Of a DNA stretch of 64,000 nucleotides, positions 2,323 to 62,039 are shown one piece after another. This stretch comes from Candidatus Izemoplasmatales bacterium (GTDB lineage Bacteria; Bacillota_I; Bacilli_A; Izemoplasmatales; Hujiaoplasmataceae). Position 1 is the first letter of the stretch, and each line of letters starts with the position of its first letter. The position numbers were made by a program, and so were the translations under genes. Under the pieces are notes generated by a model. It worked only from the letters and a program-made list of their open reading frames with translations, did no database searches and was not told the DNA's origin. The stretch covers positions 384,001 through 448,000 of the forward strand of contig JBMNEZ010000001.1 of the NCBI GenBank assembly GCA_050949045.1. The letters are read 5' to 3'.

Positions 2323-3888
2323 GTGATGTATTTGGAAAAAGCGAAGAAACACATCTTAACCAATGTTAGCAAAGCCGTCGGCGTTCTGACGATTATAACC
2401 ATTATCAGCAAGTTTTTGGGGTTGTTTCGTGAGATTGGAATCGCGGCTGCTTTTGGCGCAGGAATGGAAACGGACGCCTTCTATGTGGCAGTCCTGATTC
2501 CGACTTTGATCTTCACATCGGTTGGCCTGGCACTACAGAATTTATTCATGATTGAGTTTACAAAGGTGAAGGAACAAACAAACAGTTTAAAAGATCAATC
2601 GCTTTTAATCAGCAAAATGGTCAACATTTTGCTGGTAACAGCGATTTTGTTGTTCGTCATCTCTTTTTTATTTGCGGATGCGCTCGTTAAAATTATTGCC
2701 CCGGGATTTGTCGATCCGGATAAAGTGTCGCTGACTGTCGTTTTAACGAGGATCTTATTGCCGGTAATCATCATTATCCCTATCTACAATATCAAAGCTT
2801 CGGTGATGAAAGTTTATAACCGTTTTGGCACGATTGGAATGATTGACTTGATTTTCAACGTGGCACAACTTACTTATCTGCTTTTGTTTGCGGATCGCTT
2901 TGGCATTCACGGGCTTGCATATGCGATTCTTGGCGCATATTTGCTTCAACTAATCATCGTCGAAATCCTCATGTATAGATTGGGGTTTCGCCATTATTTC
3001 TGTTTCGGCTTCAAAGATGATGCAATCAAGCGGATCTTCGGTTTGTTTTTGCCGACACTACTCGCCTTTGCCATCATCCAAGTGAATGCGATGGTCGAGA
3101 AGATGATTGCATCAACGCTTCCCGAGGGCAGTATTTCTGCGTTGAACTACGCTTTGACCGTTAGGAATCTCGTTTTCAATGTCTTTGTACTTTCTGTGCT
3201 TACGGTTATCTATCCGAAGCTTCTGCATCACCGGACAAACCATGAAGAAGAAGAGTATCAAGACACTTCGATCAAAACACTTAAATTCTTGATCGTCGGT
3301 ATCATTCCGATGGTCATGACGATAATGTTGTTTTCAAACACGATCATAAAAGTGATTTTTGAACGCGGCGAGTTTTTACTGGAAGCGACACTGGTCACCG
3401 GGCAGGCATTGTTCTATTATGCGATTGGGATTCTGTTTTTTTCCTTGAAAGAGTTTTTCGTCAAGATATCCTTTGTCAATCAAGATACGAGACTGCCGCT
3501 TTTCATCACATTCATCGGGGCACTGCTTCATATATCATTAAGCCTCCTTTTACTGCCGTCAATGGGAATAAACGGAATCGCTTTGGGATTGTCGATATCA
3601 GAATTGATCAGTTTGATTGTTCTGGTGATCTTTATCGGCAAGAACGGTTATCTAGCGCTTGGAGATAACAGCGGTGATGTTTTCAAGATTGTGTTGATCA
3701 CTTTTATTGTCGGGATTCCTGCTTATTTTGTACAACCCTATCTCAATGTTACGGGCGGTTTCATTATCCAAGCGCTTGCGGTATTGGCAGGATTTGTCGT
3801 TATTGCGGTCAGTTTCGTTTTGTTGGCACTGCTCTTTCGGGTTGATTTGTTCAAATCGATTTTCAAGCGAGGGGAGCGAAAATCATGA
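2323..3888 (+). CDS. murJ: MurJ/MviN-family flippase
   Basis: ISKFLGLFREIGIAAAFGAGMETDAF, ASTLPEGSISALNYA, IFERGEF. Highly hydrophobic. Confidence 0.85.
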   Translation: MMYLEKAKKHILTNVSKAVGVLTIITIISKFLGLFREIGIAAAFGAGMETDAFYVAVLIPTLIFTSVGLALQNLFMIEFTKVKEQTNSLKDQSLLISKMVNILLVTAILLFVISFLFADALVKIIAPGFVDPDKVSLTVVLTRILLPVIIIIPIYNIKASVMKVYNRFGTIGMIDLIFNVAQLTYLLLFADRFGIHGLAYAILGAYLLQLIIVEILMYRLGFRHYFCFGFKDDAIKRIFGLFLPTLLAFAIIQVNAMVEKMIASTLPEGSISALNYALTVRNLVFNVFVLSVLTVIYPKLLHHRTNHEEEEYQDTSIKTLKFLIVGIIPMVMTIMLFSNTIIKVIFERGEFLLEATLVTGQALFYYAIGILFFSLKEFFVKISFVNQDTRLPLFITFIGALLHISLSLLLLPSMGINGIALGLSISELISLIVLVIFIGKNGYLALGDNSGDVFKIVLITFIVGIPAYFVQPYLNVTGGFIIQALAVLAGFVVIAVSFVLLALLFRVDLFKSIFKRGERKS

Positions 3889-6248
3889 TGGCTGGGAAAA
3901 CTGATTGGTTTGCCAAATTGCAGTCGGTAATGGTAATAGTTGTCGCCTGTGTGTATTTGGTTGCCAATTTTATTTTTTGGAATCTCAACTCGCCTGCTTT
4001 AAAAGCCAACAGCACAACGATATACAATATTTTTATCTACTCGATGCTAGTGGCTTTTCTTGTGAATATAAACAACATCAAAATTCGCTCGTTCTTTAGG
4101 GACAACCGCTTTCTTTTTGTTCTGGCAGTAATTTTGTTGTTCAACTCTTTCTTCATTCCGCTTGGGGGTAGAAGCAGAGAGTTTGTTTATACCATTCTCG
4201 GGGTGTTTTTGCTGACAACGATCATTGGCAGACTAACATATCGAAGTTTGATCGACTACGGTCTCAAGATTTTGCTCGGGCTGTTCGTGGTCTACATGCT
4301 TCTGGGAGTTATCGGTGCCGTCTTTCAGTTGGAGTCATTTTTTGGCTGGTTTCCTAATAATTTGACCGACAACTACCGCTACAGTTCAATCCTCGATAAT
4401 CCAAATTCCTTGGGTGAATATTCGTTCGTGGGTTTTTTTATCGCTGCTTTCTATTTTGTCAAAACACCAAATAACAAAACAAGGTTGCTATGCGGTCTGA
4501 TTATTGCTTTATCGGCAGCTTCGCTCCTAGTAAGTCTGAGCCGCGCCGCCTTGGTCATGGTTGGCGCGACGGTCGGCTACTTGCTTTTTTCGATGAAGCA
4601 CTTGGATAAGCAACTCAAGTTAATTCTTAAGCTGGGAATCATTGCCGTTGTCGTTGGACTGATATGCGGTTTCATCATTGCTCCTCGGTTCATGATTACT
4701 TTTTTTCGGCTTGATCAAGGGCTTACCGGCAGGGATGAGATCTGGCGGTATCTTGTCGAAGGAATCAAAGAACATTGGCTGTTTGGCGTAGGCTATAACA
4801 ATTCGCAGCTATACATCAGCATCGCCTTTCCCGGGCAGACATCATCAGCTCACAACATGTATCTCGGCTTTCTTTATGAAGCGGGGATCATTGCCTTCAT
4901 CGTTTTGCTTGCTTTCATGGTGCTCTTGATTATTCGAAACATCATATTGATCAAGCAAGACAGTAAAATCAGATTGTATTTGATCATGATTAACGCTTTC
5001 TACATCGGTTTCTTTGTCGCTCAGTTTTTTGAGTTCACATTTATGAAAATATCTGCCATAAACACCTTTATGTTCTTCATCTTTGGGATCAATCAGGCAC
5101 TGGTCTATCAAGCGAAGAAAGATGGGGACATCAAACTTCGAGTGGTTCATATGATAAGCGGGCTTGCGAACGGCGGAGCTGAGGCGATGCTCTATAAAAT
5201 CGTTAAGCACACTGATAAAACCAAATATCAGGCTAGTGTGGTCTCAATGGACACAAGGGGTTTCTATGGCGACTTGATCGAAGGCTTTGAGATTCCGGTA
5301 ATCGCTCTCAGGCTTAAAGAACCAATCGCCTTTATTAAGATTCTTCCGAAGTTCATTAGCCTTGTTTTCTTCGCCGATGTGCTTCAAACTTGGTTGTATC
5401 ACGCGAATCTGTTCGGGCTGTTTACAGGAAAACTATTGGGCGTTGACAAGATCATCTGGGGAGTCAGGCAGGCAAATGTCAGTTACGATGTCAATCCCCG
5501 TTTGGCTATGCATATTGCCAGGGTCTGTGCCTCGCTCTCTTTGTTTGTCTACCGGATTCTGAGTAATTCCGATGAAACGACGAACACTCACCAAAAACTT
5601 GGGTATCTGAAAAGAAAGTTTGTAACGATCTACAATGGTTTTGAAATGAATGAAGACTATTTGGATCAGAAACTGCTTACATCAATGAGAGCGGAGCTTG
5701 CACAAGATAACGATCTCTTAATCATCAATGTCGCGAGGTGGGATCCTCAGAAGGACCATCGGACATTGTTTCAAGCAGTCAGATTGTTGAAAAAAAGCGA
5801 ATCCAAAATGAAAATAAGACTCATTCTTTTAGGAATGAATATCGACCAGTCGAATGATGAACTTGTCAGTTTGTTGCGGGAAAATGAAATTTATGATGAC
5901 ACCATTTTGCTTGGAGTTCGTCATGATGTGTTGCAATTGATGGCCATTAGTGATATTTTTGTACTGTCATCTCTTGGCGAAGGCTTTCCCAATGTATTGG
6001 GCGAGGCAATGTCAGTCGGAACATTGGTCGTTGCGACCGATGTCGGCGATTGTAAGGCCATTATCGGTGATGCTGGACTATGTGTTCCCCCGAAAAATGC
6101 CGAGTTGCTCTTTGAGGCAATCGAGAAACTCATCAGTTTGCCTGAAATCAAAAAAGATGAACTGAGGCAGAAAGCAATGAACAGAATCAAGAACACATAT
6201 GACATCAAGGTCATCACCAGAAAGTACGAGGAACTCTATGGCGAATAA
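3885..6248 (+). CDS. O-antigen ligase-family membrane domain fused to a C-terminal GT4 glycosyltransferase
   Basis: N-terminal half: NPNSLG, SLSR, TGRDEIW, FGVG, AHNMYL. C-terminal half: VVHMISGLANGGAE, QKDH, EGFPNVLGEAM. Confidence 0.85.
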   Translation: MMAGKTDWFAKLQSVMVIVVACVYLVANFIFWNLNSPALKANSTTIYNIFIYSMLVAFLVNINNIKIRSFFRDNRFLFVLAVILLFNSFFIPLGGRSREFVYTILGVFLLTTIIGRLTYRSLIDYGLKILLGLFVVYMLLGVIGAVFQLESFFGWFPNNLTDNYRYSSILDNPNSLGEYSFVGFFIAAFYFVKTPNNKTRLLCGLIIALSAASLLVSLSRAALVMVGATVGYLLFSMKHLDKQLKLILKLGIIAVVVGLICGFIIAPRFMITFFRLDQGLTGRDEIWRYLVEGIKEHWLFGVGYNNSQLYISIAFPGQTSSAHNMYLGFLYEAGIIAFIVLLAFMVLLIIRNIILIKQDSKIRLYLIMINAFYIGFFVAQFFEFTFMKISAINTFMFFIFGINQALVYQAKKDGDIKLRVVHMISGLANGGAEAMLYKIVKHTDKTKYQASVVSMDTRGFYGDLIEGFEIPVIALRLKEPIAFIKILPKFISLVFFADVLQTWLYHANLFGLFTGKLLGVDKIIWGVRQANVSYDVNPRLAMHIARVCASLSLFVYRILSNSDETTNTHQKLGYLKRKFVTIYNGFEMNEDYLDQKLLTSMRAELAQDNDLLIINVARWDPQKDHRTLFQAVRLLKKSESKMKIRLILLGMNIDQSNDELVSLLRENEIYDDTILLGVRHDVLQLMAISDIFVLSSLGEGFPNVLGEAMSVGTLVVATDVGDCKAIIGDAGLCVPPKNAELLFEAIEKLISLPEIKKDELRQKAMNRIKNTYDIKVITRKYEELYGE

Positions 6249-35651: not shown

Positions 35652-38600
35652 GTGGACAAGATCAAAAAGCTAGTTTGGTTGTTCATCTTCATCGGTTTTG
35701 CCTTCACCTTCATCCTTGGATGCAAGGATGTTTCAACGACGATCGTTGAGACGACTTCGACGACAACTTTGGGCGTAATCAGCACCACCACCTCAAGCGG
35801 AAAGACTTCGACTGCGACGACCACCGCTCCGATAACGACCTCATCCACCATCTCCACGGACTTGACGACGGTAATAACGACCGCTCCACCTACTGTGACC
35901 ACGACGGTTCCATCTACTTTGAGCACGGCCGTCACCACCACTGTGGCATTTCCTGAGCCGACGATGGATTTTTCGGGTGAAACCGGCTGTCACACCATCG
36001 GTCTTTCGAACGATTTGGTTCTTTCGCTTGACCTTGGCGGGGCGGATATCACCGAACTTAAGTTGGGGACTACGGTCCTAGCCGCCAAAGATTACCGTTT
36101 GAGCGACGATGAATTGACGATCTTTAAGGAGTTCATCGATCGTTTTCAGCCAAGCGCAAGTTCCTTGCTTAAACTGACGACTGGTGGCGGAACCGCCACT
36201 CTCGACCTTGTCATCAACGATATCCCGGATATCAAGAACAAATCCGACTTCATCAAGTTTCCCGGAGAAGCGATCGTCAATGAGGATTTCAGAGGCCTCG
36301 TCATCGATGAAGTCGGGGCTTTGACCTATGAGTTTTCGATCGCTTCCGATGATCATCTGTTGGTCGATCACGGCAACGGCACCTTTGACTTCACCCCAGG
36401 CTTTGTCTTTGTGGGCGATCTTGCGATCACTTTCAAGGTGACCGACGAATATGGGGCAGGAGTCCAAAGAGACATCAACTTGAATTACAAAGAGGTCGAT
36501 CCTTATATCTTTGACGCCGGAGGCGAGAAGACATTTGAAAAGATGACCGCCGCCGCCGATCTTGTGATGATGGTCAATACCTATGGAAGCGAACCCGACA
36601 CTCTTTATTATGAGATGACGGATGTCTTGTTGTCAAAGGCTTCGATCGGCAGCGACAACTACCTTTTCAAAACCGATGACAATCCCAAGCTTTTCTCCCT
36701 CAAATATGAATATTTAATGGCTCTTCCTGTCGGAATTCACACTTTCACATTGACGACCGAGGCCGGACAGGCCGAGTTTATTGTCAATATTACGGATTCG
36801 AGGCCGGTAGAGGCGACTCCGAATGAGGCGGAATACACCCTCGGTGTTTCCTCGCAAAACCTCGATTTTGCTTTGGTTATTTATAACAATCAGATCACGG
36901 GAACCAGCTTTGAGCTCGATGGAACGACGCTTCTTTGCGACGAGTATACTTACAGCGATCAACTGCTCAGTTTACAGGTTGGTTTCCTGGAGACCTTGAC
37001 TCCCGGAAACCACCGCTTGAGCTGTAACGGCACGCAAATTGCATTGATTACTATTTTGACACCGCAAACGCCAAAATTGGGCGAAATCGATGAACCGGTC
37101 ATCTTTGAAAAAACAAACCCAAATGATTTGGTGATTCCGATCGAGCTCCATGGCTTTGCAAGTGTTACCGATATCTTTGATTCCCAGGTTAAACTTGAAA
37201 CCTCTGCTTACAGTCTCACCGAAACAACTCTCACCATCAAGAAAGCTTATCTTTCCGAACTGGCCTACGGGAACCATGAGTTCTTTATTGTGAACTCTCA
37301 AGGCTCGGCATCGTTCTTTGTGGCGATCACCGACAAACCAAAGCCGTCTTCAACCGATCAGAATGTGACCAAGTTCACCTACGAGACGATATCGAGCGAA
37401 GCGTTGAGGGTCTTGCAACCCGGCGGCTATGAAATCGAGCGCTTTGAACTGCTTTCGGTCGGCTTCTACAACTATGTTGAAACCGCGAGCGGAACCGCTC
37501 TAGAAGCCGATCTTGATGAATCGCTGCTTGAGGCGACCGGCGGCTTTGGCTCGCTTACCATCAGCGAGACCGCCAAAGCCTTCGCCTTTATCAGAAACTC
37601 CGGCTGGTACGGCGTGGTCGTCTTCACCTATGTCGCCCTTGATGAACTCGGTCTCTCAAGCGCTCCGATCACGATGGAAGTCGTCTATAAGCCTATGCCC
37701 CCGGCGATCGCCGACAGTACTTCCAAGCACTATGTGAAAGGCGATTTGACCGATGTTGTCTACACCGTCACCAACATGTCCGGCAATTCTTACTTCCCGA
37801 TCGAGAAGATCTTCTATGGAGAAACCGAACTGGTGCTTGATAGCGATTATACGGTCGGGCCGCAGGAAGGAAGCAACCTCTTCTTCACGATTAAAGCCAC
37901 ATACTTAGAAACTTTATCGCTCGGAACGAAAGCTTTCCTGCTTCGAACCGGAGGCGGACAGGCCGAGTTCTCGCTTGAAATCAATAGCGCTTTGAATATC
38001 AGCGATCCCGACGGCGAGTTCGACAAAAACATTCCCGAAACCATTGTGTTTGCGGTTTCGGGTCAGCCGAACGTCATCCAGACATTGAAAAAAGCTGGGA
38101 CCGTCCTTCCTTCCGATCATTACACTTTCACGGATGGATCCCTCTCGATCAAGTCTACCTATCTGAACAATCTTCCTTATGGAGAACACCACTTCACGAT
38201 CAATAACGGGTATGGAGAAAGCGAACTAAAGATTACGGTGATGGACTCTAGAACGCCCGTCTTGGTGTCAGAGACGATAACCTACTATGAGGGCAGTCTG
38301 GAAAATGTCAGCGTCGCCGTCAATCTTTACGACAAGTCGGTTACGGGGTTGTTGCTGGGAGAAACTGAAGTAAGCAGCAGCAATTACTCGGTTTTTGAAA
38401 ACACCGTTACGCTCACAGGTCCGTATCTTGAAAGCGTCGGCGTTGGCCGGGAAGAACTCGCCTTCACGATCGTCTGCTCGGAAGGAAGCATTTCTTTCAC
38501 GGTTTTGATCGAGATTCCGGTCGCTGGTCCAACTATCACGCAGATATCCCCGGATTTCAAAATCGACACCATCGAAGATGTGACCTACAGCATCAATTTG

Positions 38601-46171: not shown

Positions 46172-48292
46172 ATGATGAAAAAATACTATCTGCTCTTCCT
46201 CCTTATTCTCTTGACTGCTCTTGGCGGCTGTCAAGAGGAAACGACTCTGCCCACAACCCTGCCGGTCACAACTGCCTCAACCACCACTCTGTTGGCGCTT
46301 GAGGCGCCCGGCAATCTTGTTTTGGCCGACAGGACTCTGAGCTGGGGCGAGGTGCCGGGGGCGAATGAGTACATCGTCAGGATCGACGGCAGGGAAACAA
46401 ACGTTTCGACAAACTCCTACCTTATCCCGGAATCCGTTTACGGCAAACTCTCGATCAGTGTCAAGGCCAAAGCCGGGACAGTGGAATCACCGTTTTCAAA
46501 TCCGATACTGAGAACGATCTACTATGTGTTGTCACAGCCGGAAAATATAGCCCAGAACGGCACCTTGATCACCTGGGATGAAGTTCTATGTGCGAGCGGC
46601 TATGTCATCAAGGTGAACGGTGTCGAGATCGTCCTTGAAGACAATGAATACAATATCGATATCGCCACCTCTAAAACGATCAATGTGAGAGCGATCTGTC
46701 CCTCTGATTCCTATATCATCAATAGCGATTTCACTGTTGATTTTGTGACCAAGACCAGACTGCAAACGCCCTCGGGCATCCGCTATGAAGAAGGCAGGCT
46801 GGTTTGGGATGCGGTCGCAAACGCTGATGGTTACCGGCTGACGATCGGGGCTTCCAGTTACCAGGTCGCGATCAATGTTTTTACCGATGTTTCGGCTTAT
46901 CGCGGAGAAGAAACAGTCACTGTGACAGCCAAGAACACTCTGGGGCTGTATCTTGATTCGATTGCGGCTTCAGCGATCATCGATTTTCCGATCCAGAGAC
47001 TTCCAAAAGTGACCGGCATAGAAGTCTCTGGAAACAATTTGAGGTTTGAGGGAAGCGCCGGCGCCACCGTTTATGATATCTACTATGGCGGGAACTACTT
47101 TGCGACGATCACGGAAACAACCTACCTCATACCCCCCTCGATCATGGCTGATCCAGACAGCTATCTCCAAGTCGTTGCCAAAGCCGATGGCTTCCATGAT
47201 TCGCCTCTGAGCGAGAAGGTCTTCGTCAACTATGAACTGATCTCGACCGAAGCGGAACTGATCGCCATGACCGCCGGCGGGCACTATGTTCTCGCAAACG
47301 ATATCGCGCTTACTGCGCCCTGGATTCCGCTTGATTTCTCAGGAAGCTTAAACGGCAACGATTTCGAGATTTCAAACATCGTTATCAGCGACGCATACCA
47401 GAACACCGGTTTGTTCGGCGTCTTGAATGAAGCGACGATCACCAATCTCAACCTGAACGGCGACATCAATTTCATCAGCGGTTTGTTTGCGGTCAATGTC
47501 GGTTCTCTCGCAGGAACGATCACAAGTTCAGAGATCGCCAATGTCAGCGCCAGATTCACGATCAACGCAGCTTCCCATAACGGAGTGGGAACAGTTGGCG
47601 GCCTGGTCGGCCTGCTTGAAAACACCAATCTCTATCGAAGCCATTTTGCGGGCGAAATAACAACCGCCAATATGACCACCGGCGGCCTCATCGGCAAGGC
47701 CCAGAACCCACTCGCATCCTCATCAGTCCACCAGTCAAGCGTTACAGCCGCCATCTTTAGTTCGGGCGGCCTTGAGAGCCCGGCGGGCGGTTTCATCGGC
47801 GTCATGAACAACAATTATCTTTCAATCAGCGAAGCTATGGCGAGGGTTGAAGTGGTCGGCGCAAACACCGTCGGCGGTTTTGTCGGCCGACTGGACTTTG
47901 GACATATCAGCGACAGTTACGCTATCGGAACCGTGGAAGCGACAAACACCGAATTTGTGAGCCTCGGCGGCTTCATCGGCATGCTTGTGGGCTACAACGC
48001 GACCGTCGTCAATATCTTGTCGGCTGTCGATGTCGTTGATCCTTTGGGCAACATTGAAGTCTACGCGGGCGGCTTCACGGGACTTACACCCGGAGGCAGT
48101 TACGCTCTCATGTATGACAATTGTCACTACCAAAGCCTGGCAAATCCGATTGACCGGATCGGCAACGCCGAAACCGGCAGAGGCGATGGCATCGCCCTGC
48201 TTGTCGGCTTAGAAGACATTTCCGGCTTCAGCCCATCAATCTGGGATTTTGGGACATTCTTCAAGTTAGTATGGGAAAAAGAAGCAGACTAA
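46172..48292 (+). CDS. Lipoprotein with FN3-like repeats and a GLUG/ZmpB-like beta-helix region
   Basis: Lipobox LGGC; L.AP.NL..LSW.EV..A..Y repeats; YVLANDI, FSGSLNGN, repeated VGGLVG/VGGFVG. Confidence 0.7.
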   Translation: MMKKYYLLFLLILLTALGGCQEETTLPTTLPVTTASTTTLLALEAPGNLVLADRTLSWGEVPGANEYIVRIDGRETNVSTNSYLIPESVYGKLSISVKAKAGTVESPFSNPILRTIYYVLSQPENIAQNGTLITWDEVLCASGYVIKVNGVEIVLEDNEYNIDIATSKTINVRAICPSDSYIINSDFTVDFVTKTRLQTPSGIRYEEGRLVWDAVANADGYRLTIGASSYQVAINVFTDVSAYRGEETVTVTAKNTLGLYLDSIAASAIIDFPIQRLPKVTGIEVSGNNLRFEGSAGATVYDIYYGGNYFATITETTYLIPPSIMADPDSYLQVVAKADGFHDSPLSEKVFVNYELISTEAELIAMTAGGHYVLANDIALTAPWIPLDFSGSLNGNDFEISNIVISDAYQNTGLFGVLNEATITNLNLNGDINFISGLFAVNVGSLAGTITSSEIANVSARFTINAASHNGVGTVGGLVGLLENTNLYRSHFAGEITTANMTTGGLIGKAQNPLASSSVHQSSVTAAIFSSGGLESPAGGFIGVMNNNYLSISEAMARVEVVGANTVGGFVGRLDFGHISDSYAIGTVEATNTEFVSLGGFIGMLVGYNATVVNILSAVDVVDPLGNIEVYAGGFTGLTPGGSYALMYDNCHYQSLANPIDRIGNAETGRGDGIALLVGLEDISGFSPSIWDFGTFFKLVWEKEAD

Positions 48293-48335
48293 GAATTTTG
48301 GATAGATAAACATAGGATTGTAGGAGGTGGTGCCT

Positions 48336-48455
48336 TTGATTGAAAGAAACATCGAGGCGCGAACAACAATGAGAAACGCATCTAAGGGATTGCTTGTGCT
48401 CAAAAGCGAATTACCAGACAAACGAGAAGCAACTTATAAAGGAGAATGTGTATGA
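48336..48455 (+). CDS. Possible 39-aa upstream ORF coupled to precursor 1
   Basis: AGGAGGT at 48322-28, TTG at 48336; its TGA overlaps the precursor ATG (ATGA). No recognisable motif. Confidence 0.3.
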   Translation: MIERNIEARTTMRNASKGLLVLKSELPDKREATYKGECV

Positions 48456-48583
48456 AAGAAAAACAGACAAAAAAACAATATGAAAGGCCGATGCTTGAAG
48501 TGATCGAATTTGACCTCGAAGACAGCATCGCGACGAGCATGGATTTCGGCCCTTCGACGATTTGCGGTGAGCAGACATGGTAA
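48452..48583 (+). CDS. RiPP-like precursor peptide 1, 43 aa: MKEKQTKKQYERPMLEVIEFDLEDSIATSMDFGPSTICGEQTW
   Basis: Translated by hand. RBS AAGGAG; YxxPxL leader motif; near-identical paralog at 55101 with only synonymous differences over 21 codons. Confidence 0.9.
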   Translation: MKEKQTKKQYERPMLEVIEFDLEDSIATSMDFGPSTICGEQTW

Positions 48584-51057
48584 ACATCAAAAAGGCTTTG
48601 GCCTGTTTTCTCGTCGTGACGCTGTCACTCTTGACGGTGGCCTTTCTTGCGAAAGAAACGACCATCAAGGCAACAGGGGGACAACAAACAGCTGAAAGCG
48701 TGGAATTGACCCTCGTGAGCTACTTTGACCAGGAAAACACGATCACATCCGTGTTTGAGATTCCCGAGGAGGGAACGCGGTGGTTTGATGAGTCGACAGA
48801 CAAGCTCCATGTCTATACTTCTGGAGCCTGGGACGCGGGAACAGCTGTCCCCGTTGTCGCCCCTGAGATGCCATCAACCGGCGACATGTGGTTTGACGAG
48901 GCAAAGAACACGCTCTACACTTACCTGGCTGAAGGTTGGGATGCCGGCGAGGTACTGCCGACCGCGGAACCCGATCTCAAGTATGGACAGAAACTGTCGT
49001 TAAACAGCAGTTTGGCATCAATGCCGGGATATTCATTTCTCTTTTGGGAAGTGAACGGATCGATTCGTCATGATTATGCTATCGATCACGTGTTCACTCT
49101 AACCAAAACAAATGTCATCAAGGCTGTTTTCAGCCCTTCTGACAGGCACGCGGTGGTTTTTGTGGATGCCAACAGTGAGATCCTTAAAGTCGAGTATGTC
49201 GCAGATAACGGAACTGCCACCCCGCCGGAGACCCTACCATCAAAACCGGGATATTCAACCAACGGGTGGGATGTCAGTTATGAAAATGTCACCGATGATG
49301 TCGTGACGGTGTTGCAGTATACTGCCACAGACACGACTGAGTATCTGGTTACGGTCGAAAACGGCACCGGCGATGGCAGTTATGCTTATAACACTGTTGC
49401 GACCGTTACTGCGGACGTCCCTTCACAAGGAAATTATTTTCATCATTGGTCGGTCGGCGACGAGATCGTCAGTTATCAATCGACTTACAAGTTTTCTGTC
49501 TATGGTGCGACAACGATAACCGCAGTTTATGAGGGTTCAGCGCCTTCCGACAATCCCTACGTGGTGCTCGGGGATGATCTGGCGATCAGATCCGGCTCAA
49601 AAACCTATGTCGGTCAGTTCTATGTTCCAACCGGCTACACATTGATCGAATACGGGATCTTGACATCGATCAGCGAAGCGGAAATCAATCTCGACACCAT
49701 TAGGACAACAAGGTATCCTGGCTATAAGTACAATGCGGCCACCAAAGAATTCGTGATGAGTTTTGAAGAAAACGAAATCACCGCCGCCAGGGCTTATTTG
49801 ATTTGTAGTGATTCGGAAGATGCTATCCACACTTATTACAGCGGCCATAGATACTCGTCTTCCATCTATCAAGTCAAGAATGGCGGATTTGAGTTTGAAG
49901 ACGGCGCCATAACCGGTAGTCTCGATGGCTGGTATGGATACAACATTTGGAAGAACGAAAAGGGAATGCAATCATTCCTTCGTTGGGACGATGGGAATGG
50001 AAAATTTGTCAATCTTGATGACCGCGTCGTGAACACAACGTATTTTGACAATCATCCTTATAACAGAGATGGCAGTTACAATCTCGGGATCACATGGCCG
50101 GGAGGCAGTTGGGATCAAACATCAGAAAGAATGGGACATCTCCGTTCATCTAATTTCACGCTTGGCGGAAGCGGATGGATCAGTTTCAAACTCGGGGGAG
50201 GCAAGTCTAGCTCTTTCGCTTTCGTATCCGTTAGAAGAGCTTCGGATAACTATGAGGTCGCCCGTTTTGGAAACAAGAACTACAACAATACTGCAATCGC
50301 GTCGGCACAATACGGTTCGGCCATAACCAATGCGGAAGCATTCTTATTCCAATACTACTATGACTTAAGCGAATATTTGGGCACAGAATTGTATTTCCTC
50401 ATCACAGAATCATCATCAAAAGAATGGTGTATTCTCTCAGCCGACTCATTCGTGACCTACTATCCAATAGCGCCCTCAACTGATTCGGATACCTTAGCCA
50501 CAAATATCCTGCCAACGATTTACAATGCCGGATCCTCAACGAACCAGTTGGCAAACAACCTTAATGGCAATGTTAATAATTGGGGGAACCCAAATAATGT
50601 GTTCCGTTGGGATGATGGGGCAGGAAGAACTAATGCTATTAGTGGAGATAACGATTTGGGAGTCGCCCGTTCATCAGCGTTTAATATCAATGGGCCCAAC
50701 ACCTATCTATGGTGGCAGTGGGAAGGCAATATCAGTCAAGACAAACAATTGTTCATATCCATCAAAGAGGTCGGGACAAACATTGAAGTTTTGCGATTGG
50801 TAAGAAGAGACAACTTGTCAGGAAAAACAGGTGGTGGATTTGACAATCACTGGTTTGATCTCAGCGGGCTTGATGCCGGCAAGGAGTACTATGTTGAACT
50901 ATGTGACAATTTGACCATTGGTTGGGGCTTGATCAGTATCAAAGATATTTATCTGGCACAGAATAATCAAAGCGACAAGGTTGGGTCGGCTCAACCAAAT
51001 GACGTGGCGGTTTCAATCTCAGGAATTGAAACCGAGTTTGCTTACGAGGAACCTTGA
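48577..51057 (+). CDS. Secreted protein, scaffold family member 1 (B-repeat-like N-terminal scaffold plus tandem NxGFE.G module)
   Basis: Signal peptide. N-terminal region is homologous to the 55242 and 57825 proteins; C-terminal region is homologous to the module in the 35652 protein. Confidence 0.85.
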   Translation: MVNIKKALACFLVVTLSLLTVAFLAKETTIKATGGQQTAESVELTLVSYFDQENTITSVFEIPEEGTRWFDESTDKLHVYTSGAWDAGTAVPVVAPEMPSTGDMWFDEAKNTLYTYLAEGWDAGEVLPTAEPDLKYGQKLSLNSSLASMPGYSFLFWEVNGSIRHDYAIDHVFTLTKTNVIKAVFSPSDRHAVVFVDANSEILKVEYVADNGTATPPETLPSKPGYSTNGWDVSYENVTDDVVTVLQYTATDTTEYLVTVENGTGDGSYAYNTVATVTADVPSQGNYFHHWSVGDEIVSYQSTYKFSVYGATTITAVYEGSAPSDNPYVVLGDDLAIRSGSKTYVGQFYVPTGYTLIEYGILTSISEAEINLDTIRTTRYPGYKYNAATKEFVMSFEENEITAARAYLICSDSEDAIHTYYSGHRYSSSIYQVKNGGFEFEDGAITGSLDGWYGYNIWKNEKGMQSFLRWDDGNGKFVNLDDRVVNTTYFDNHPYNRDGSYNLGITWPGGSWDQTSERMGHLRSSNFTLGGSGWISFKLGGGKSSSFAFVSVRRASDNYEVARFGNKNYNNTAIASAQYGSAITNAEAFLFQYYYDLSEYLGTELYFLITESSSKEWCILSADSFVTYYPIAPSTDSDTLATNILPTIYNAGSSTNQLANNLNGNVNNWGNPNNVFRWDDGAGRTNAISGDNDLGVARSSAFNINGPNTYLWWQWEGNISQDKQLFISIKEVGTNIEVLRLVRRDNLSGKTGGGFDNHWFDLSGLDAGKEYYVELCDNLTIGWGLISIKDIYLAQNNQSDKVGSAQPNDVAVSISGIETEFAYEEP
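48757..48972 (+). repeat. Two tandem 108-nt (36-aa) intragenic repeats, E.P..G..WFDE....L..Y....WDAG...P
   Basis: Units at 48757-48864 and 48865-48972; absent from the two paralogs. Confidence 0.8.
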
Positions 51058-51079
51058 TTTTTTTACTTGCCGTGATTCA

Positions 51080-51112
51080 AAACCCCCGATGACACGCCGT
51101 TGTCGGGGGTTT
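51080..51112 (+). terminator. Stem-loop, probable intrinsic terminator
   Basis: AAACCCCCGATGAC-acgcc-GTTGTCGGGGGTTT just after the stop at 51057; short U tract. Confidence 0.65.
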
Positions 51113-51162
51113 CATAATGGTTGAGGGAAATTCAAGCAAATGATGCTAGCTCAGATGTTTTA

Positions 51163-51171
51163 TGATAAAAT
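51163..51171 (+). promoter_or_regulatory. Extended -10 element upstream of the radical SAM gene
   Basis: TGaTAAAAT ending 8 nt before the GTG at 51180. Confidence 0.45.
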
Positions 51172-51179
51172 ACAAATAG

Positions 51180-52187
51180 GTGATCTCATTGACTGACTAT
51201 CAAGGCTTAAAATCTAAAATCATCAGACTGGGAGCGCTTCAAAGAGTCCCGGTTCTTGGCGAGTTTGAACTGACCTCGAAATGTAATTTCGCCTGTCCCA
51301 TGTGTTATGTCAAAGACAATAAGCCAAAAAGCGAGCTGGCCAAGGAAGAGTGGATCTCGATCTTTGAAGAAGCGGTTGTCGAAGGATTGGTCTACGCCCT
51401 TTTGACCGGAGGGGAGCCCCTCACAAGGAGCGACTTTGTGGAACTGTATGAGTTCCTCTATGACTATGGAGTCAAGATAACGGTTTATACAAACGGCTAT
51501 CATTTAACCAAAGAACAGCTTGAGGCCTTCACGAACAGGCCCCCGGAGATGGTTGCCATCACTCTTTACGGCGCAAGTGACGATACCTATAACATCGTGA
51601 CGGGCATCAAGGATGGCTATACAAAAGTAACAGAAAACATCCTCAAACTGAAAAAAAGCAAGATCAACATCGCCTGCCGGGTAATTCCGATTCCCGAGGT
51701 CTACGCCGATCTTGATGATATCTTGAAGTTTATCAAAGAAAATAACATTCCCCTAGGGTATTTCCTCTATCTAGCTCCGTCGAAGAAAAAGGATTACCAC
51801 GGAAGATTATCTCCCGAGCAATTAGTTGATTTCGAGCAGCGGCTTCTTACTTTCAAAGGAAAGCAAAAACCCTCCAAGGATTTTGATACTTTATCGAGTT
51901 GCGCCGCTCTTAAGAGCGGCTATGCGGTGAACCACCGAGGATATATGCAACCATGTACTTTGATGGCTCATCCAAGAAAGAAACTGGAACGCGGGACATT
52001 TCTCACAACCTTTCGGGAACTAAGTGATAAATGGCAGAATCTTGAGAAGTCCCATGACTGTGAGTCCTGTGATTTAAGCTCATCATGCATTCCCTGCCCC
52101 GCCAGAAGATATTATGAAGGCGATCCTCACAAGTGTGCTCCCTACCTCCTTGAAATCGCCAAGGAAAGGAAAAAACGAAATGACTGA
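51180..52187 (+). CDS. Radical SAM/SPASM-domain peptide maturase
   Basis: ELTSKCNFACPMCY (CxxxCxxC), TGGEP, YTNG; C-terminal CAA..G.MQPC..CESCDLSSSCIPCPA..C. Confidence 0.9.
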   Translation: MISLTDYQGLKSKIIRLGALQRVPVLGEFELTSKCNFACPMCYVKDNKPKSELAKEEWISIFEEAVVEGLVYALLTGGEPLTRSDFVELYEFLYDYGVKITVYTNGYHLTKEQLEAFTNRPPEMVAITLYGASDDTYNIVTGIKDGYTKVTENILKLKKSKINIACRVIPIPEVYADLDDILKFIKENNIPLGYFLYLAPSKKKDYHGRLSPEQLVDFEQRLLTFKGKQKPSKDFDTLSSCAALKSGYAVNHRGYMQPCTLMAHPRKKLERGTFLTTFRELSDKWQNLEKSHDCESCDLSSSCIPCPARRYYEGDPHKCAPYLLEIAKERKKRND

Positions 52188-53031
52188 CACCTATAAGATC
52201 GGTAATGTTTGTCTTAGATTTAAGTATATCTACGACAAATATTTTGCATCGAGGATACGTTCATACAAAAGCGATGAATCACCTGAATATCAAATGCGGG
52301 TTGTTATTAAGAAAGATTTGATGTTTCCCGAAGGAAAACCGAAATATAGATTTCAAGACCGTCAGATTTATGAAGATGGACAAAAAGGAGTCATTGTCAA
52401 ACATGATGACAAAAACAATATTACCCACCTAATCACCTATTCGCTCGATTTCAAGGATATTCTAATCGAGCTGTCGGAGTCATTGGGATCAAGATTGGCC
52501 GAAGTGGAATACAAAATCAGCGGAATGATGTTTTTCGAGATTGCGATCAGGAATGGTTTGATCCCGATTCACGCCTCAGCTATCGGCTACCAAGACGAAG
52601 CTATCCTTTTCTGTGGTTCCTCCGGAACCGGCAAATCGACTCAGGCGGAGCTTTGGAAACAAAATCTTGACGAGGTGATCTTCATCAACGACGACAAGCC
52701 TTTGCTTTATGAGGCCGGCGACGGACTCTATGTCACTGGCTCGCCTTGGTCGGGAAAGACATCAAGGAATGAAAACGTCAAAATGAAGGTGAAAGCGATC
52801 GTCTTCATCAAGCAAGCCCCCCACAACAATCTCATTTCTCTCACTGTCTATGACAAGATAACCAACTTCTTAAGAAACATCTATCGACCGAGGGAAGAGG
52901 CCAAGATCGAGAATGTGCTGGAACTGATCGAAAAGATGATCTCTGATCTTCCGGTTTACAAATATTATTGCACAAAAGAGAATGATTCTTTCGAATACTT
53001 GTATCAGGCACTTTATAGAAGGGATTACTGA
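52180..53031 (+). CDS. HPr-kinase-related P-loop kinase
   Basis: IHASAI..AILFCGSSGTGKSTQA..W, INDDKP, GSPWSGK. ATG 52180 overlaps the end of the rSAM gene. Confidence 0.8.
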   Translation: MTDTYKIGNVCLRFKYIYDKYFASRIRSYKSDESPEYQMRVVIKKDLMFPEGKPKYRFQDRQIYEDGQKGVIVKHDDKNNITHLITYSLDFKDILIELSESLGSRLAEVEYKISGMMFFEIAIRNGLIPIHASAIGYQDEAILFCGSSGTGKSTQAELWKQNLDEVIFINDDKPLLYEAGDGLYVTGSPWSGKTSRNENVKMKVKAIVFIKQAPHNNLISLTVYDKITNFLRNIYRPREEAKIENVLELIEKMISDLPVYKYYCTKENDSFEYLYQALYRRDY

Positions 53032-53033
53032 AG

Positions 53034-53306
53034 ATGAAACTGAAAGCAAACTATGTTTTAAGAGAAGTCGCGGGCGAGAATATCGTCATCCCTGTCGACA
53101 GCGAGGCCATCAACTTCAACGGCATCATGACGCTCAATGAAACCGGTAAGTTTTTGTGGAACCAGTTGAAACAAGAGGTGTCGGTCGAAAGCTTGATTGC
53201 GTCCATCGTCGATAACTACGAAGTCGACAGAAACACCGCCGCCCAAGACGTGACGGCATTTATTGAAAAGCTTAGAAAACACAATGTTCTTGAAGATGGC
53301 AAGTAA
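53034..53306 (+). CDS. Stand-alone PqqD-family RiPP recognition element (RRE)
   Basis: 90 aa; LREVAGE..V, TLNETGKFLW..L, YEVD...A..DV..FIEKL....L. Confidence 0.9.
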   Translation: MKLKANYVLREVAGENIVIPVDSEAINFNGIMTLNETGKFLWNQLKQEVSVESLIASIVDNYEVDRNTAAQDVTAFIEKLRKHNVLEDGK

Positions 53307-53745
53307 GAAAGAGACAAAAAACGGCATCTTGCCGCTGATCGAGGAACAACTGCTTCTCGGCAAACAAGTGGCCTTTAAAGTCAAGGGAACAAGCATGTTC
53401 CCGTTTTTGCATTCGGGAAGAACCGAAGTCACGCTCCATAAGCCAACCGTCGAACCGAAAAAATACGACATCGTCCTTTTCAAAACAAAAGACCACTATG
53501 TTTTGCACCGGATCATCAAGCGTCGCCGCGATGTTTACATCGTCATGGGCGACGCTTTAAAGAAAAAAGATTATGTCAAGATCGACCAAATCATCGGTGT
53601 CGTCAAAGAGATCAAAGTCGATGGCAAACCGGTCGACATCCATGAGAAGAAATACAAGCGTAAAGTCAGATGCTGGGTCGCTTTCCGGGCCGCCAGGAGA
53701 TTCCTCCTCTACTACTTGAGGCGTTCACAGAAGGATATAAAATGA
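53296..53745 (+). CDS. S24/S26-family peptidase (Ser-His type, no N-terminal TM)
   Basis: VKGTSMFPFL, DIVLF, VLHRII, MGDA. ATG 53296 overlaps the end of the PqqD gene. Confidence 0.85.
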   Translation: MASKKETKNGILPLIEEQLLLGKQVAFKVKGTSMFPFLHSGRTEVTLHKPTVEPKKYDIVLFKTKDHYVLHRIIKRRRDVYIVMGDALKKKDYVKIDQIIGVVKEIKVDGKPVDIHEKKYKRKVRCWVAFRAARRFLLYYLRRSQKDIK

Positions 53746-54935
53746 GCATCCTCTACGATCAATTGATCTTTATCAGCAAATGCGCCCTGAACAACCTTGA
53801 ATACGAAGAGGCCATCGACAACATCAAAGAACTGTTTCGTCTTGCCCGGGAAAACGGCCTGTCGGGGCTCTTTTACGCCGTTTTGAAAAACAACCAGTCA
53901 GTCATTGATGAACAGCGATTGCTTCTCAAAGAGTACTATCTCTACCAAGCAAAAGACATAATTCAAAAGCAGGCGATTGCGGAGATCACCTCTTTTTTCA
54001 ACCATGCCCGGATCGATCATATCTATCTCAAGGGCTCGGCCATCAAGAAACACTATCTTGAGAGCTATATGCGCTCGATGGGCGATATCGATCTTATCAT
54101 TAAGCCGGAAGATTTAGAGCGTTCACGAATGATTTTAAAATCAGCCAACTATAAACTCGACATTGAAGGCTCGACTCATGACGTCTATTTCAAAGGCAGG
54201 GACATCATAGTTGAGGTCCATCCCGGAGTCGACCATCACCTTGATTCGGATCATTTAACCGCTTTGGGCGACGTCTTCGCCGACGGTCTTCCCATCAGCG
54301 GATGTTTATTCGAGTTATCTCCCGAAAAAGAACTTGTCTATCTTTTATCCCATCTCAAGAAGCACTTTCTTTCATCGGGTGTCGGCTTGCGTCAAGTCCT
54401 TGATATCGGCGTCTTTTTAGACAAGATGGAAGCCAAAATCGATAACGAAAAGTTATTTGACCTTCTCAAAACTGCTAATCTTACAAACTTTGCAAAGAAC
54501 ATGATCTCCTTCAATAAGCAAGCCTTCGGCTTCCGGATTGGAGAATTTATCCTGTCCGGATACCGGATGGCGGATGCTCTCTTTGAAGAAACCAAAGCAT
54601 ATGTCATCGGTTCTGGAGTCCATGGGACCGCTAGGGATTTCAATCGCAGTGTTCCGGTGCTTACGAAACATTCACTCAAGACCGGTAAGACTAGAGGCAG
54701 CAAGATTCGTTATTTGATCCGTATTCTTTTCCCCAAGCGGATCGATCTGATGTCAACTGAGAAGTATCTGAAAAAACATGGTTGGCTGTTGCCGTACGCC
54801 TGGATCAAAAGGTGGATCAGGCTTGTTTTCAAGAAAACAAGAAGAAGCATCGCCAAACTGAAAGCTTTGGATGCGGTTGACAAAGAAATGCTTCAGAGTA
54901 ATCTTGATCTATATCGTAAACTAGGTATTAACTAA
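53742..54935 (+). CDS. Nucleotidyltransferase-family protein (type found in lasso/HPr-kinase-related clusters)
   Basis: LKGSAI..Y..RSMGDIDLII, VEVH, HL.KH..GVGLRQVLDI. ATG 53742 overlaps the peptidase stop. Confidence 0.85.
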   Translation: MSILYDQLIFISKCALNNLEYEEAIDNIKELFRLARENGLSGLFYAVLKNNQSVIDEQRLLLKEYYLYQAKDIIQKQAIAEITSFFNHARIDHIYLKGSAIKKHYLESYMRSMGDIDLIIKPEDLERSRMILKSANYKLDIEGSTHDVYFKGRDIIVEVHPGVDHHLDSDHLTALGDVFADGLPISGCLFELSPEKELVYLLSHLKKHFLSSGVGLRQVLDIGVFLDKMEAKIDNEKLFDLLKTANLTNFAKNMISFNKQAFGFRIGEFILSGYRMADALFEETKAYVIGSGVHGTARDFNRSVPVLTKHSLKTGKTRGSKIRYLIRILFPKRIDLMSTEKYLKKHGWLLPYAWIKRWIRLVFKKTRRSIAKLKALDAVDKEMLQSNLDLYRKLGIN

Positions 54936-55100
54936 AGAATGCGCACGCATCGTATATAGTAAACAATAGGTGGTATTCCGAATATTATACATACAGATTT
55001 ATCATTAATTGTTTTATCAATATGGGCAATATGATAAAATATCTGTGGTATGCGCTTGATCGATACATAATATTTTTCTTGAAGGAGATGACGTTTAAAA

Positions 55101-55235
55101 ATGAAACAAGTCAATGACAAGAAATCGCAATATGTGAAGCCCGACATCGAAGTGATTGAATTCTCGCTTGAAGACAGCATCGCCACCAGCATGGATTTTG
55201 GCCCGTCGACAATCTGCGGCGAGCAAACGTTTTAG
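55101..55235 (+). CDS. RiPP-like precursor peptide 2, 44 aa: MKQVNDKKSQYVKPDIEVIEFSLEDSIATSMDFGPSTICGEQTF
   Basis: Translated by hand. GAAGGAG at 55081-87; YxxPxI motif; paralog of 48452. Its TAG overlaps the AGGAGGT RBS of the next gene. Confidence 0.9.
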   Translation: MKQVNDKKSQYVKPDIEVIEFSLEDSIATSMDFGPSTICGEQTF

Positions 55236-55241
55236 GAGGTA

Positions 55242-57683
55242 ATGATGATGAAAAAGGGATTTATTTTTTGCTTGTTGTCGCTTTTCCTGTTCGCTTTGCC
55301 GGTAAGGTATGTTAAAGCTGAATCAATGGCAAATGTCGATGTTCAAGTAAAAGCCTATTTTGATGAATATAACATTCTAACAACAAACGTAAATGACCAG
55401 CCATACGCCAGCAAAATATCTGCCTCTCTTCATATCCCTGAAGCCCCAGAAGGATATTCTTCATATCAGTTCTTCTGTTGGGTTGTCAATGGGGTTGTCA
55501 GGCAAGACCTTCCAGCTGATTATGAGTTTTTTGTTAGAAACACGACCGTTCTTACAGCCATCTACAGGCCGTCTGACAGACATGCGGTTCTTTTCATGGA
55601 CTCCAACGGAACTGCAATAAAAGTTGATTATGTCAGTAATGGTGAAGATGCAACACCGCCGGATGTATCAAGTTATTCCAAACCGGGGATGGTCGTCTCA
55701 TCAACCAGTCCTTGGGGCGAAGTAAGTCTAACCAACATCACAGAAAACAAAATCGCGTATCTCGAGTATGATTTTGATACTTCGGAAACCTTTAATGTCA
55801 CAGTTGTGAACGGTAGCGGCAGCAATGAAGCGGCGTCATACGGATCAGTATTGACTGCTGTCGCCAATGCTCCCGAAGGAGATTTGGAATTCTTTCATTG
55901 GACCGATGAAAACGGCAAAATTGTAAGTCATAAACCATCATACTCATTCACGGCCTACAAAGACACAACGATTACCGCGGTTTATGAAAACATGCCGTCG
56001 GTTGATATTCCGTATGTTGTGATAAGTGATCTGTTGTTGCTGAGAGATGGCAAAAGCACATTCATTGGTCAGTTCAACATTCCCGATGGATATACTATGG
56101 TTGAATATGGATTTCTTGCAGCTAATACTCAATTTGATTTTAAACTCGATACCGAAGGTGTCATTAAATACCAATCGGAAAAATCAAATGCGCAAACTAA
56201 CGAGTATATGATTAGTTTTCCATTTGTAAATGGGCAATCCGTCAAAGGTTACATTGTTGTTAAAAACGCCTTAACCGGTTTATTAGAATACCATTATAGC
56301 AGTACTGAGAAAATTTCTTTCTTGATGATCAGCGAATATGGAGAAGGTTCGAGCTACAACAAATGGATTGAAATTTATAATCCAACCGATGAAATCGTCG
56401 CGCTTTCTGATTATAGGGTTGAACTTTATGTCAATGGCGCTACCACAGCAAGTAATCCGCTATCATTTACTACTGAATCGATTTTTCCTGGAGATGTCTA
56501 TGTTATTGCTCACCCTGATTCAAACGCAGATATTCTAAGTCAATCGGATGTTACCAGCGAAGTAACTAATTTCAATGGAGACGATGCGGTTGCATTGCTG
56601 AAAAATTATGTTGTGATCGATGTCATTGGTGTTATTGGAACTGATCCAGGAACAAAATGGGATGTAGGAGAAGGATCCACTCTTGATCATACACTGGTAA
56701 GGAAACCAAGTACGGATTATTATCCGAATGGTGCTTGGAAACCTTCGGATTGGGATGTCTATGATTGTGATTACATAGGCAATCTTGGATATCACGAAGA
56801 TGTAGAACCCTTGTCAATTTCGATTATCGGTGCTACTGAAGTGATGAAAGATGCATCTCTACCACTAGCAGTAATGTATAACCCGATCAATTCGATAAGG
56901 GGAGTCGAATGGGAAAGCAGCAACACTTCGATTGCCACGGTTAATAGTAATGGACTTGTGACTGGGGTTGACGTGGGAGAGGTTACTATTACTGCCAGGT
57001 CCGCACTCAATGGAACTATTTTAGATACACATCCAGTTACGGTTACTTCACCTGTCTATTATTCTGTCAGTGCATCATCTTCTGACGAATTAAAAGGTTC
57101 AGTCAGCGCGAGCCCAACTTCGGTTTTATCTGGCGGCTCTTCGACAATCACAATTTCGCCAGCAACAGGATATCAAGCCTCAACAATCACAATTAATAGC
57201 GAAGAACCTATTGATATTACTGGACAGACATCATATTTGATTGAAAACATCTTTGAAAATAAGACGGTTGTAGTAAATTTTGTTGAAGGTATTACGGAAT
57301 TAGTGTTCTCAAAGACTCTTACTGGTACAACAGGTAATCCCCCTTCAGGGTGGACCTATAGTGGCTTAGGTAGTGCATATAAAGACGGCTCACTAAAAAT
57401 GGATACCACTGGCGACTATATTATTTCTGAATCGTTTGCTCTTCAAACATCGGCAATTTTGTATATTGAATTGAAAGGCAACGGTTTTTCTGGAGGTAGT
57501 ATTAGTTTCTACGATCAAGAAAATAACCTTCTCAAGACTTTTTCAACTGAAATCGAAAATTTGCAAAAAACACTATCATTTACCATTTCAGATACTTCGG
57601 TTACTTCTGTAAAATTTGTATATAATAAATCAAGCGGAAATGTTGGAATATACTCAGTTGAGTTAAAACACATAGTTGACTAA
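55242..57683 (+). CDS. Secreted protein, scaffold family member 2 (scaffold plus lamin-tail domain, Big_2, C-terminal beta domain)
   Basis: Signal peptide ending VKA; LMISEYGEGSSYNKWIEIYNP (lamin-tail domain); WESSNTSIATVNSNGLVTGV (Big_2). Start may be 55245 or 55248. Confidence 0.85.
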   Translation: MMMKKGFIFCLLSLFLFALPVRYVKAESMANVDVQVKAYFDEYNILTTNVNDQPYASKISASLHIPEAPEGYSSYQFFCWVVNGVVRQDLPADYEFFVRNTTVLTAIYRPSDRHAVLFMDSNGTAIKVDYVSNGEDATPPDVSSYSKPGMVVSSTSPWGEVSLTNITENKIAYLEYDFDTSETFNVTVVNGSGSNEAASYGSVLTAVANAPEGDLEFFHWTDENGKIVSHKPSYSFTAYKDTTITAVYENMPSVDIPYVVISDLLLLRDGKSTFIGQFNIPDGYTMVEYGFLAANTQFDFKLDTEGVIKYQSEKSNAQTNEYMISFPFVNGQSVKGYIVVKNALTGLLEYHYSSTEKISFLMISEYGEGSSYNKWIEIYNPTDEIVALSDYRVELYVNGATTASNPLSFTTESIFPGDVYVIAHPDSNADILSQSDVTSEVTNFNGDDAVALLKNYVVIDVIGVIGTDPGTKWDVGEGSTLDHTLVRKPSTDYYPNGAWKPSDWDVYDCDYIGNLGYHEDVEPLSISIIGATEVMKDASLPLAVMYNPINSIRGVEWESSNTSIATVNSNGLVTGVDVGEVTITARSALNGTILDTHPVTVTSPVYYSVSASSSDELKGSVSASPTSVLSGGSSTITISPATGYQASTITINSEEPIDITGQTSYLIENIFENKTVVVNFVEGITELVFSKTLTGTTGNPPSGWTYSGLGSAYKDGSLKMDTTGDYIISESFALQTSAILYIELKGNGFSGGSISFYDQENNLLKTFSTEIENLQKTLSFTISDTSVTSVKFVYNKSSGNVGIYSVELKHIVD

Positions 57684-57776: not shown

Positions 57777-57806
57777 TTCACATCGTGATGAGCTATACTA
57801 TATAAT
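57777..57806 (+). promoter_or_regulatory. Candidate promoter for scaffold gene 3
   Basis: TTCACA, 18-nt spacer, TATAAT; AGGAG RBS downstream. Confidence 0.45.

Positions 57807-57824: not shown

Positions 57825-62038
<4,214 letters not shown>

Positions 62039-62039
<1 letters not shown>

Follow-up and report, generated by a model that had tools for sequence, protein, structure and literature searches.

The linear polyphosphorylated peptides (LPPs) of Paenibacillus alginolyticus, encoded by the lppA-K-B-S-D-N cluster, are the closest described counterpart of the locus analysed here (Popov et al. 2026, PMC13381572). According to the accessible text of that paper, the LPP kinase polyphosphorylates Ser3 and the peptidase cuts before A-Q-S; LppN displayed no detectable activity in one published test, and the authors suggest that it requires a partner beyond the core cluster. 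The biological role of LPPs and paeninodins and the acceptor of LppN are given there as not known, and the same text reports no surface partner for the Bacillales LPP clusters. The words ‘radical’, ‘surface’, ‘secreted’ and ‘membrane’ are absent from the main text; in the supplement, ‘Flg_new’, ‘InlB’, ‘Acholeplasma’ and ‘Izemoplasma’ are absent and ‘Radical_SAM’ occurs once, as the head of a column in a domain matrix.

A second point of reference is provided by fosfazinomycin biosynthesis (FzmF/K/U, PMC13622209), in which kinases build a triphosphate-like donor and a nucleotidyltransferase ligates this donor to a YxxP peptide. FzmU is a precedent for a transferase that uses a kinase-made surrogate of an NTP. 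Unlike what we propose below, the donor in this pathway is a small phosphonate, and PF14907 is not mentioned for FzmU in the accessible text of the paper.

The stretch of DNA that we analysed (the window, 64,000 nucleotides of a Candidatus Izemoplasmatales genome) contains the following features.

48452–48583, + strand: precursor peptide 1 (43 aa), with a YxxP leader, the invariant I-A-x-S, and a predicted core of 17 aa that contains one Cys and has an acidic-aromatic end
48577–51057, + strand: S1, a secreted protein of 826 aa with a signal peptide; module at 48664–49872, with its D4 domain at 49549–49839; no Pfam match
51080–51112: hairpin with a 14-pair stem, the likely terminator of the precursor 1 and S1 unit
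51180–52187, + strand: radical SAM/SPASM enzyme (PF04055, E 9e-22) with CxxxCxxC and seven C-terminal Cys; Cys conserved in 21 homologues
52180–53031, + strand: HPrK-like kinase (TIGR04249, E 1e-7, below cut-off) with a Walker A motif
53034–53306, + strand: discrete RiPP recognition element (RRE) of the PqqD family (PF05402, E 1e-17)
53296–53745, + strand: S24/S26 signal-peptidase-like leader peptidase (TIGR02228, E 2e-7, below cut-off) with Ser, His and Asp motifs
53742–54935, + strand: NTP_transf_5 nucleotidyltransferase-like enzyme (PF14907, 145 bits against a cut-off of 31.2)
55101–55235, + strand: precursor peptide 2 (44 aa), whose predicted core equals that of precursor 1 except for the last residue
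55242–57683, + strand: S2, a secreted protein of 813 aa with a signal peptide; module at 55323–56315, with D4 at 56004–56297; lamin-tail and Big_2 domains
57777–57806, + strand: promoter-like site upstream of S3 (11 of 12 consensus positions, a consensus match only)
57825–62039, + strand: S3, a secreted protein of 1404 aa; module at 57900–58871, with D4 at 58554–58844; no precursor gene

Analogous to the LPP clusters as they are described in the accessible text, the locus combines a YxxP leader with an RRE of the discrete type, a kinase that is HprK-like, a signal-peptidase-like leader peptidase and an NTP transferase, has A-x-S at the start of the predicted core, and contains no cyclase. The kinase assignment rests on weak matches to HprK-related and ScmC profiles together with the Walker A motif, and the archaeal-type signal peptidase I of the LPP clusters finds its counterpart in the TIGR02228 match and the catalytic-type motifs. 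The locus departs from the same description in several respects. A radical SAM/SPASM enzyme is added to the cassette, whereas the MsbA-like exporter of the LPP core cluster is missing from it; the core is short (17 aa), and each precursor lies directly next to a secreted module protein. The leader agrees with the LPP consensus YxxPxVLxHQxIxFETxxS only at YxxP and the final Ser and is one residue longer. As the exporter and the full leader consensus both fail, we consider the system LPP-like but do not class it as a member of the LPP family. We found no solved relative of the NTP_transf_5 transferase.

Other peptide systems match the cassette in part. The best NCBIfam matches are to ScmE (radical SAM) and ScmC (kinase) of the SynChlorMet cassette (TIGR04248–04251), and an RRE is present in the window, but the scores (72.8 of 400, 31.5 of 125 and 19 of 100) are far below the curated cut-offs. 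Phosphorylated lasso peptides of the paeninodin type share the kinase, RRE and transferase types (accessible text of PMC13381572), and there is a weak match to their leader (NF033524, E 0.05). However, lasso peptides need a macrolactam cyclase and a B2 cysteine peptidase, and neither has a match among the cassette genes. The radical SAM/SPASM maturase is a feature in common with sacti- and ranthipeptides. Variants of the cassette occur elsewhere: L053 contains at 3861–5762 a 633-aa ORF with matches to the radical SAM enzyme and, going by its length and position, to a second enzyme fused to it, two partial cassettes are present in G026, and a kinase–RRE fusion is found in cassettes without radical SAM (L104:12293–13396).

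Across its 1.36 Mb, the genome carries two precursor genes, a single enzyme cassette and three genes with the module. Only two of its stop-to-stop segments shorter than 150 aa match the precursor and both abut module genes (two of the three), so the adjacency in this genome is not due to chance. The precursors differ synonymously at 13 of the 28 codons that specify the same residue, which shows that selection keeps the peptide. Furthermore, I-A-x-S is invariant in all 29 aligned precursors, including the Ser at the place that matches LPP Ser3, which suggests that cut and Ser are those of the LPPs; the cleavage site of precursor 1 is predicted by this analogy. As an earlier note on this DNA had described, the end of precursor 1 overlaps the S1 start by 7 nt (ATGGTAA), and the TAG of precursor 2 lies within the ribosome-binding site of the next gene, overlapping AGGAGGT 6 nt before the ATG at 55242. 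These overlaps of start and stop point to translational coupling between each precursor and the downstream gene. Fusion of precursor and protein by read-through can be ruled out in the window because the proteins carry their own signal peptides. In one RNA contig (X3) the A-run at 48468 is one A longer, which would shift the precursor 1 frame; the additional A is absent from five other runs that cover this site or its vicinity, and is possibly an error or rare slippage.

The hairpin that had been noticed at 51080, between the first unit and the maturase operon, is borne out by its stability (z −4.0; none of 200 shuffles is equally stable). RNA contigs end at 51066–51086 in four of eight runs while one run continues to 51154, which is a weak hint of termination. 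A single RNA contig spans precursor 1 and S1 (48231–51086), although contigs cannot prove a single transcript. The enzyme genes are barely covered by RNA contigs, which are uninformative on their expression.

The proteins downstream of the two precursors are paralogous in their N-terminal region, as previously claimed: S1 and S2 share a module of about 330 aa with 36% identity. A third paralog, S3, which the earlier note did not include, carries the same N-terminal module followed by lamin-tail, metallo-β-lactamase-fold and endonuclease I domains. The AlphaFold2 model of the module is confident (pLDDT 94.5) and displays four domains, all of them β. The first three resemble InlB-type repeats (weak Flg_new_2 match), and D4 appears to have an FN3/Ig-like fold whose best structural match (Z 9.1, rmsd 2.5 over 86 aligned residues) is tied with many others. 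D4 matches no Pfam family and nothing in plasmids, and a Foldseek search with the whole module returned only generic β-sandwich chains. Residues conserved in D4 include R268, E288, E321 and Y337 in the numbering of S2. Co-folding of module and precursor gave a score of 0.02 against a mark of 0.32, which counts neither way. The cargo that follows the module varies (endonuclease I, purple acid phosphatase, lamin-tail, leucine-rich repeats, ice-binding-like domains, the last exemplified by L046:4174–5997). D4 is found no more than 60 residues from the C-terminus in seven of the best 150 database representatives; a protein from Clostridium pascui and one probable fragment are among the seven. In the single-member database protein P0146, D4 runs in frame into a precursor-like C-terminal tail. 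S1 has two short W-F-D-E-type repeats inserted in its first module domain (48750–48960) that are absent in S2 and S3. The GC content of S2 (39.5%), compared with 47% in S1 and 46% in S3, suggests a different history.

The pairing of precursor and module gene is conserved. In 61 relatives, strong module matches (E below 1e-30) and strong precursor matches fall in one and the same set of 23 genomes, and the transferase is present in 22 of them. Strong precursor matches in these relatives lie directly before a module gene in 31 of 33 cases and stop at contig breaks in the other two; this and the pairing counts that follow overstate the association because kin are not independent. D4 was found in 39 genomes of a 399-genome sample of the class, together with the precursor in 35 and with the transferase in 33 of them; 37 of the 70 transferase-positive genomes have no D4. 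Another 24 strong or moderate precursors at the class level comprise 19 before a module gene, three at contig breaks, one before another secreted protein and one (L108) without an adjacent partner. A metagenome scan seeded by the precursor alone yielded 43 precursors (39 distinct) in 41 loci, some of which repeat known genomes: 36 precede a module gene, six are near contig ends, one precedes a short module-type ORF, and none precedes an unrelated gene. The check that the earlier note had proposed, whether precursors consistently precede scaffold genes across genomes, thus came out in favor of the pairing. Precursor-module units also stay intact far from the enzymes (e.g. L037, L042, L046, L049 and L050).

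Scaffold genes in genomes that lack the cassette, which were to speak against the link, exist in part: in G093, G165, G419 and G260, each with a module, no RRE, kinase or transferase was detected. G093 (100% complete, 200 contigs) has precursor and module, and G165, of the same genus, has an intact module with 37 of 42 conserved residues. The carriers are records of Acholeplasmatales, Ca. Izimaplasma and Ca. Izemoplasmatales, and include the cultured species Acholeplasma equirhinis (P0166); these groups are not known to have a cell wall. A scan of a genome collection found only three loci. Judged by title and opening of the abstract, no paper in the openly accessible literature that we searched describes this pairing.

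The genetic tie across genomes and the anchoring-like character of the module support the earlier proposal that the peptide is a partner of these surface proteins, but a dedicated one-to-one pairing is not supported. Within genomes the predicted cores are on average 0.88 identical (12 pairs, with 0.94–1.0 in 10 of the 12) whereas the D4 domains of their partners are 0.35 identical; between genomes, pairs with D4 identity above 0.45 have cores that are 0.63 identical (31 pairs). As the cores track the genome and not the neighboring protein, a single product common to the whole cell is a better fit than a private partner for each protein. Of the 66 module genes on the tree, 19 were scored as lacking an adjacent precursor, in one case only through a cut contig. 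In a quick tree, the S3-type genes that have no precursor group separately in supported clades.

Several observations concern how the module proteins may be held on the cell. By a custom rule, neither a lipobox nor a C-terminal membrane helix was found in any of 146 D4 proteins; in the window genome this lipobox rule missed about 4 of 26 evident lipoproteins, and 22 large ORFs there pass it. Among 59 locus proteins there is one doubtful case of a lipobox or C-terminal helix. The missing anchor is not special to module proteins since the genome has other large signal-peptide proteins with neither module nor lipobox. The lipoprotein at 35652 in the window ends in a 770-aa phosphatase cargo, and its residues 1049–1820 share 51–55% identity with the region behind D4 in three module proteins. 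In these proteins (G021, G024 and G036), which have a signal peptide and the module, the phosphatase cargo starts right after D4. Judged from these sequences, module and lipid anchor appear to be interchangeable front ends. A second natural experiment is found in G377 (97% complete, 8 contigs), which falls in the same genus as G289, a carrier of the system, but has no match to the precursor, RRE or kinase, and no transferase above the cut-off. Its module protein has a lipobox at the start and keeps 22 of 42 conserved residues, compared with 29–42 in 66 others; relative to S3, its nuclease is 38% and its module 24% identical. This loss of the system with gain of a lipobox and decay of the module is a single event. 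The comparisons support the view that the module behaves like an anchoring unit.

The radical SAM enzyme is an optional member of the family. In 50 genomes, chosen because a precursor was seen, a core with Cys and the radical SAM enzyme are both present in 23 and both absent in another 23 (46 of 50 agree). Two genomes (G013 and G398) have the enzyme without a Cys core, and two (G008 and G060), in both of which the cassette is missing or cut, have a Cys core without the enzyme. The split recurs within two families (f2 and f7), in which kin are not independent. There is one Cys per core, and the radical SAM enzyme likely acts on it.

The cassette has no exporter gene, in agreement with the earlier reading of the DNA, and the genome contains no orthologue of the exporters in the cassettes of relatives: its best matches are 25–38% identical to five such exporters, which are 35–51% identical among themselves. 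A dedicated LppD-like ABC exporter is present in 16 of 58 genomes but in none of the 26 of the window's family, in a survey that scored 25 candidates per genome and checked the window genome separately. A strict swap between radical SAM enzyme and exporter is ruled out, as the two occur together in G049 and G398 and are both missing from several genomes. In G049, locus L047 contains a full cassette with radical SAM enzyme and exporter and then two module genes without a precursor, which is on another contig.

Combining these findings, we propose a modified-peptide anchoring system in which a shared, phosphorylated surface hook would bind the module of S1–S3 and hold these proteins on the cell, a reading whose chances we judge to be evenly balanced. 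Five enzymes would convert two near-identical peptides into this one hook. By analogy with LPPs, the RRE would bind the YxxP leader, the kinase would polyphosphorylate core Ser3, and the S26 peptidase would cut before A-x-S; co-variation suggests the Cys of the core as the target of the radical SAM enzyme. More speculatively, the transferase might use the phosphorylated Ser as an activated donor, or nucleotidylate the Ser, and couple the peptide to a lipid of the membrane or a glycan of the surface. Export in the window's family, none of whose 26 genomes has the LppD-like exporter, may use a general transporter. D4 would then recognise the anchored peptide, in which case module and peptide would stand in for a lipoprotein anchor, and the gene overlap would match the supply of hook to that of protein. 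In cohesin-dockerin, SLH and choline-binding anchoring, likewise, a terminal module common to varied cargo docks on a cell-surface partner; the partner proposed here differs in being a ribosomal, enzymatically modified peptide.

The absence of a dedicated exporter from the window's family and the tight gene overlap, which suits co-translational capture, would also agree with a peptide that is attached to the module or escorts it inside the cell, as a covalent tag or a helper in folding or secretion, and leaves with the protein, the module binding the surface otherwise. The partner suggested for LppN outside the core cluster (accessible text of PMC13381572) and the precursor-like tail fused after D4 in P0146 point the same way. 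We nevertheless consider this course of events unlikely: a dedicated ABC exporter exists in 16 of 58 genomes, S3-type genes manage without an adjacent precursor, and the fusion in P0146 is known from one sequence, whose linker resembles a translated ribosome-binding site, and may be an error.

It is improbable, too, that the peptide is an independent, released RiPP (a signal or weapon) that is merely co-regulated and co-inherited with surface-protein genes. The precursor-module units that are intact far from the enzymes, the lack of an unrelated gene behind any of the 43 metagenome precursors and the decay of the module where the system was lost argue against such a product, even though the cores track the genome rather than the partner, module genes occur without detectable maturases, and Bacillales LPP clusters have no surface partner reported in the accessible text of PMC13381572. 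Overlaps between start and stop range from −8 to +21 nt and are conserved throughout, as would suit a small ORF that is a regulatory leader, the translation of which, sensed via the RRE and enzymes, controls the downstream secreted gene. This we regard as very improbable, considering that (i) in other families, related precursors are found directly downstream of a secreted neighbor whose terminal domain is C-terminal (L067, L125, L126, L129, L130 and L132), and (ii) the presence of complete maturation machinery, leader peptidase included, implies that a product is made.

The shared surface hook could have a wider counterpart. Of 21 precursors in 20 further regions, four are located before module genes, four precede and eight follow secreted proteins with an unnamed domain that we call ‘IR..GLRF’, one lies about 250 nt before such a protein, and four have other neighbors. 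In the ‘IR..GLRF’ regions the peptide gene is at whichever end of the neighboring gene carries the domain, and the N- and C-terminal copies of the domain are homologous (profile comparison, probability 96.8%). The comparison between the D4 and ‘IR..GLRF’ profiles was not significant (probability about 2%, E 0.025–0.38, with controls at E 0.12–0.69). Each of the two matches one Atlas cluster, identical in size (116 aa and 196 members, with 0.89 and 0.92), which is a lead on kinship and no more. We tentatively extend the proposal to a general form of anchoring in which kinase and transferase would join a RiPP to the membrane, and an unnamed family of terminal domains (D4 here, and in other Bacillota the possibly related ‘IR..GLRF’) would dock secreted enzymes and adhesins in place of lipoprotein or sortase anchoring. 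If true, this would be a novel means by which bacteria retain secreted proteins on their surface, drawn from natural-product enzymes; it would give a role to a peptide class of hitherto unknown function and explain many unannotated small YxxP genes beside surface-protein genes. The locus offers a candidate partner domain for LPP-like peptides, and the anchor swap and the loss of the system with lipobox gain provide two natural experiments.

The surroundings of the locus are rich in glycan-related genes. LPP clusters, according to the accessible text of PMC13381572, lie near polysaccharide loci, and a polysaccharide biosynthesis locus occupies positions 1–23830 of the window, where we find four proteins with an O-antigen ligase (Wzy_C) domain besides two flippase-like genes and a TupA-like ATP-grasp enzyme. 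It is followed at 23939–48292 by a glycan use locus, probably for a mannoside, that comprises a LacI-type regulator, GH130, a sugar ABC transporter, DUF1861, a GH125 lipoprotein, an F5/8-GH130 protein, and a 1821-aa lipoprotein with CBM_X2 repeats and a purple acid phosphatase. The C-terminal half of S1 is 44% identical to part of the neighboring lipoprotein at 35652, and S1 has an unnamed domain in common with two proteins of the glycan use locus.
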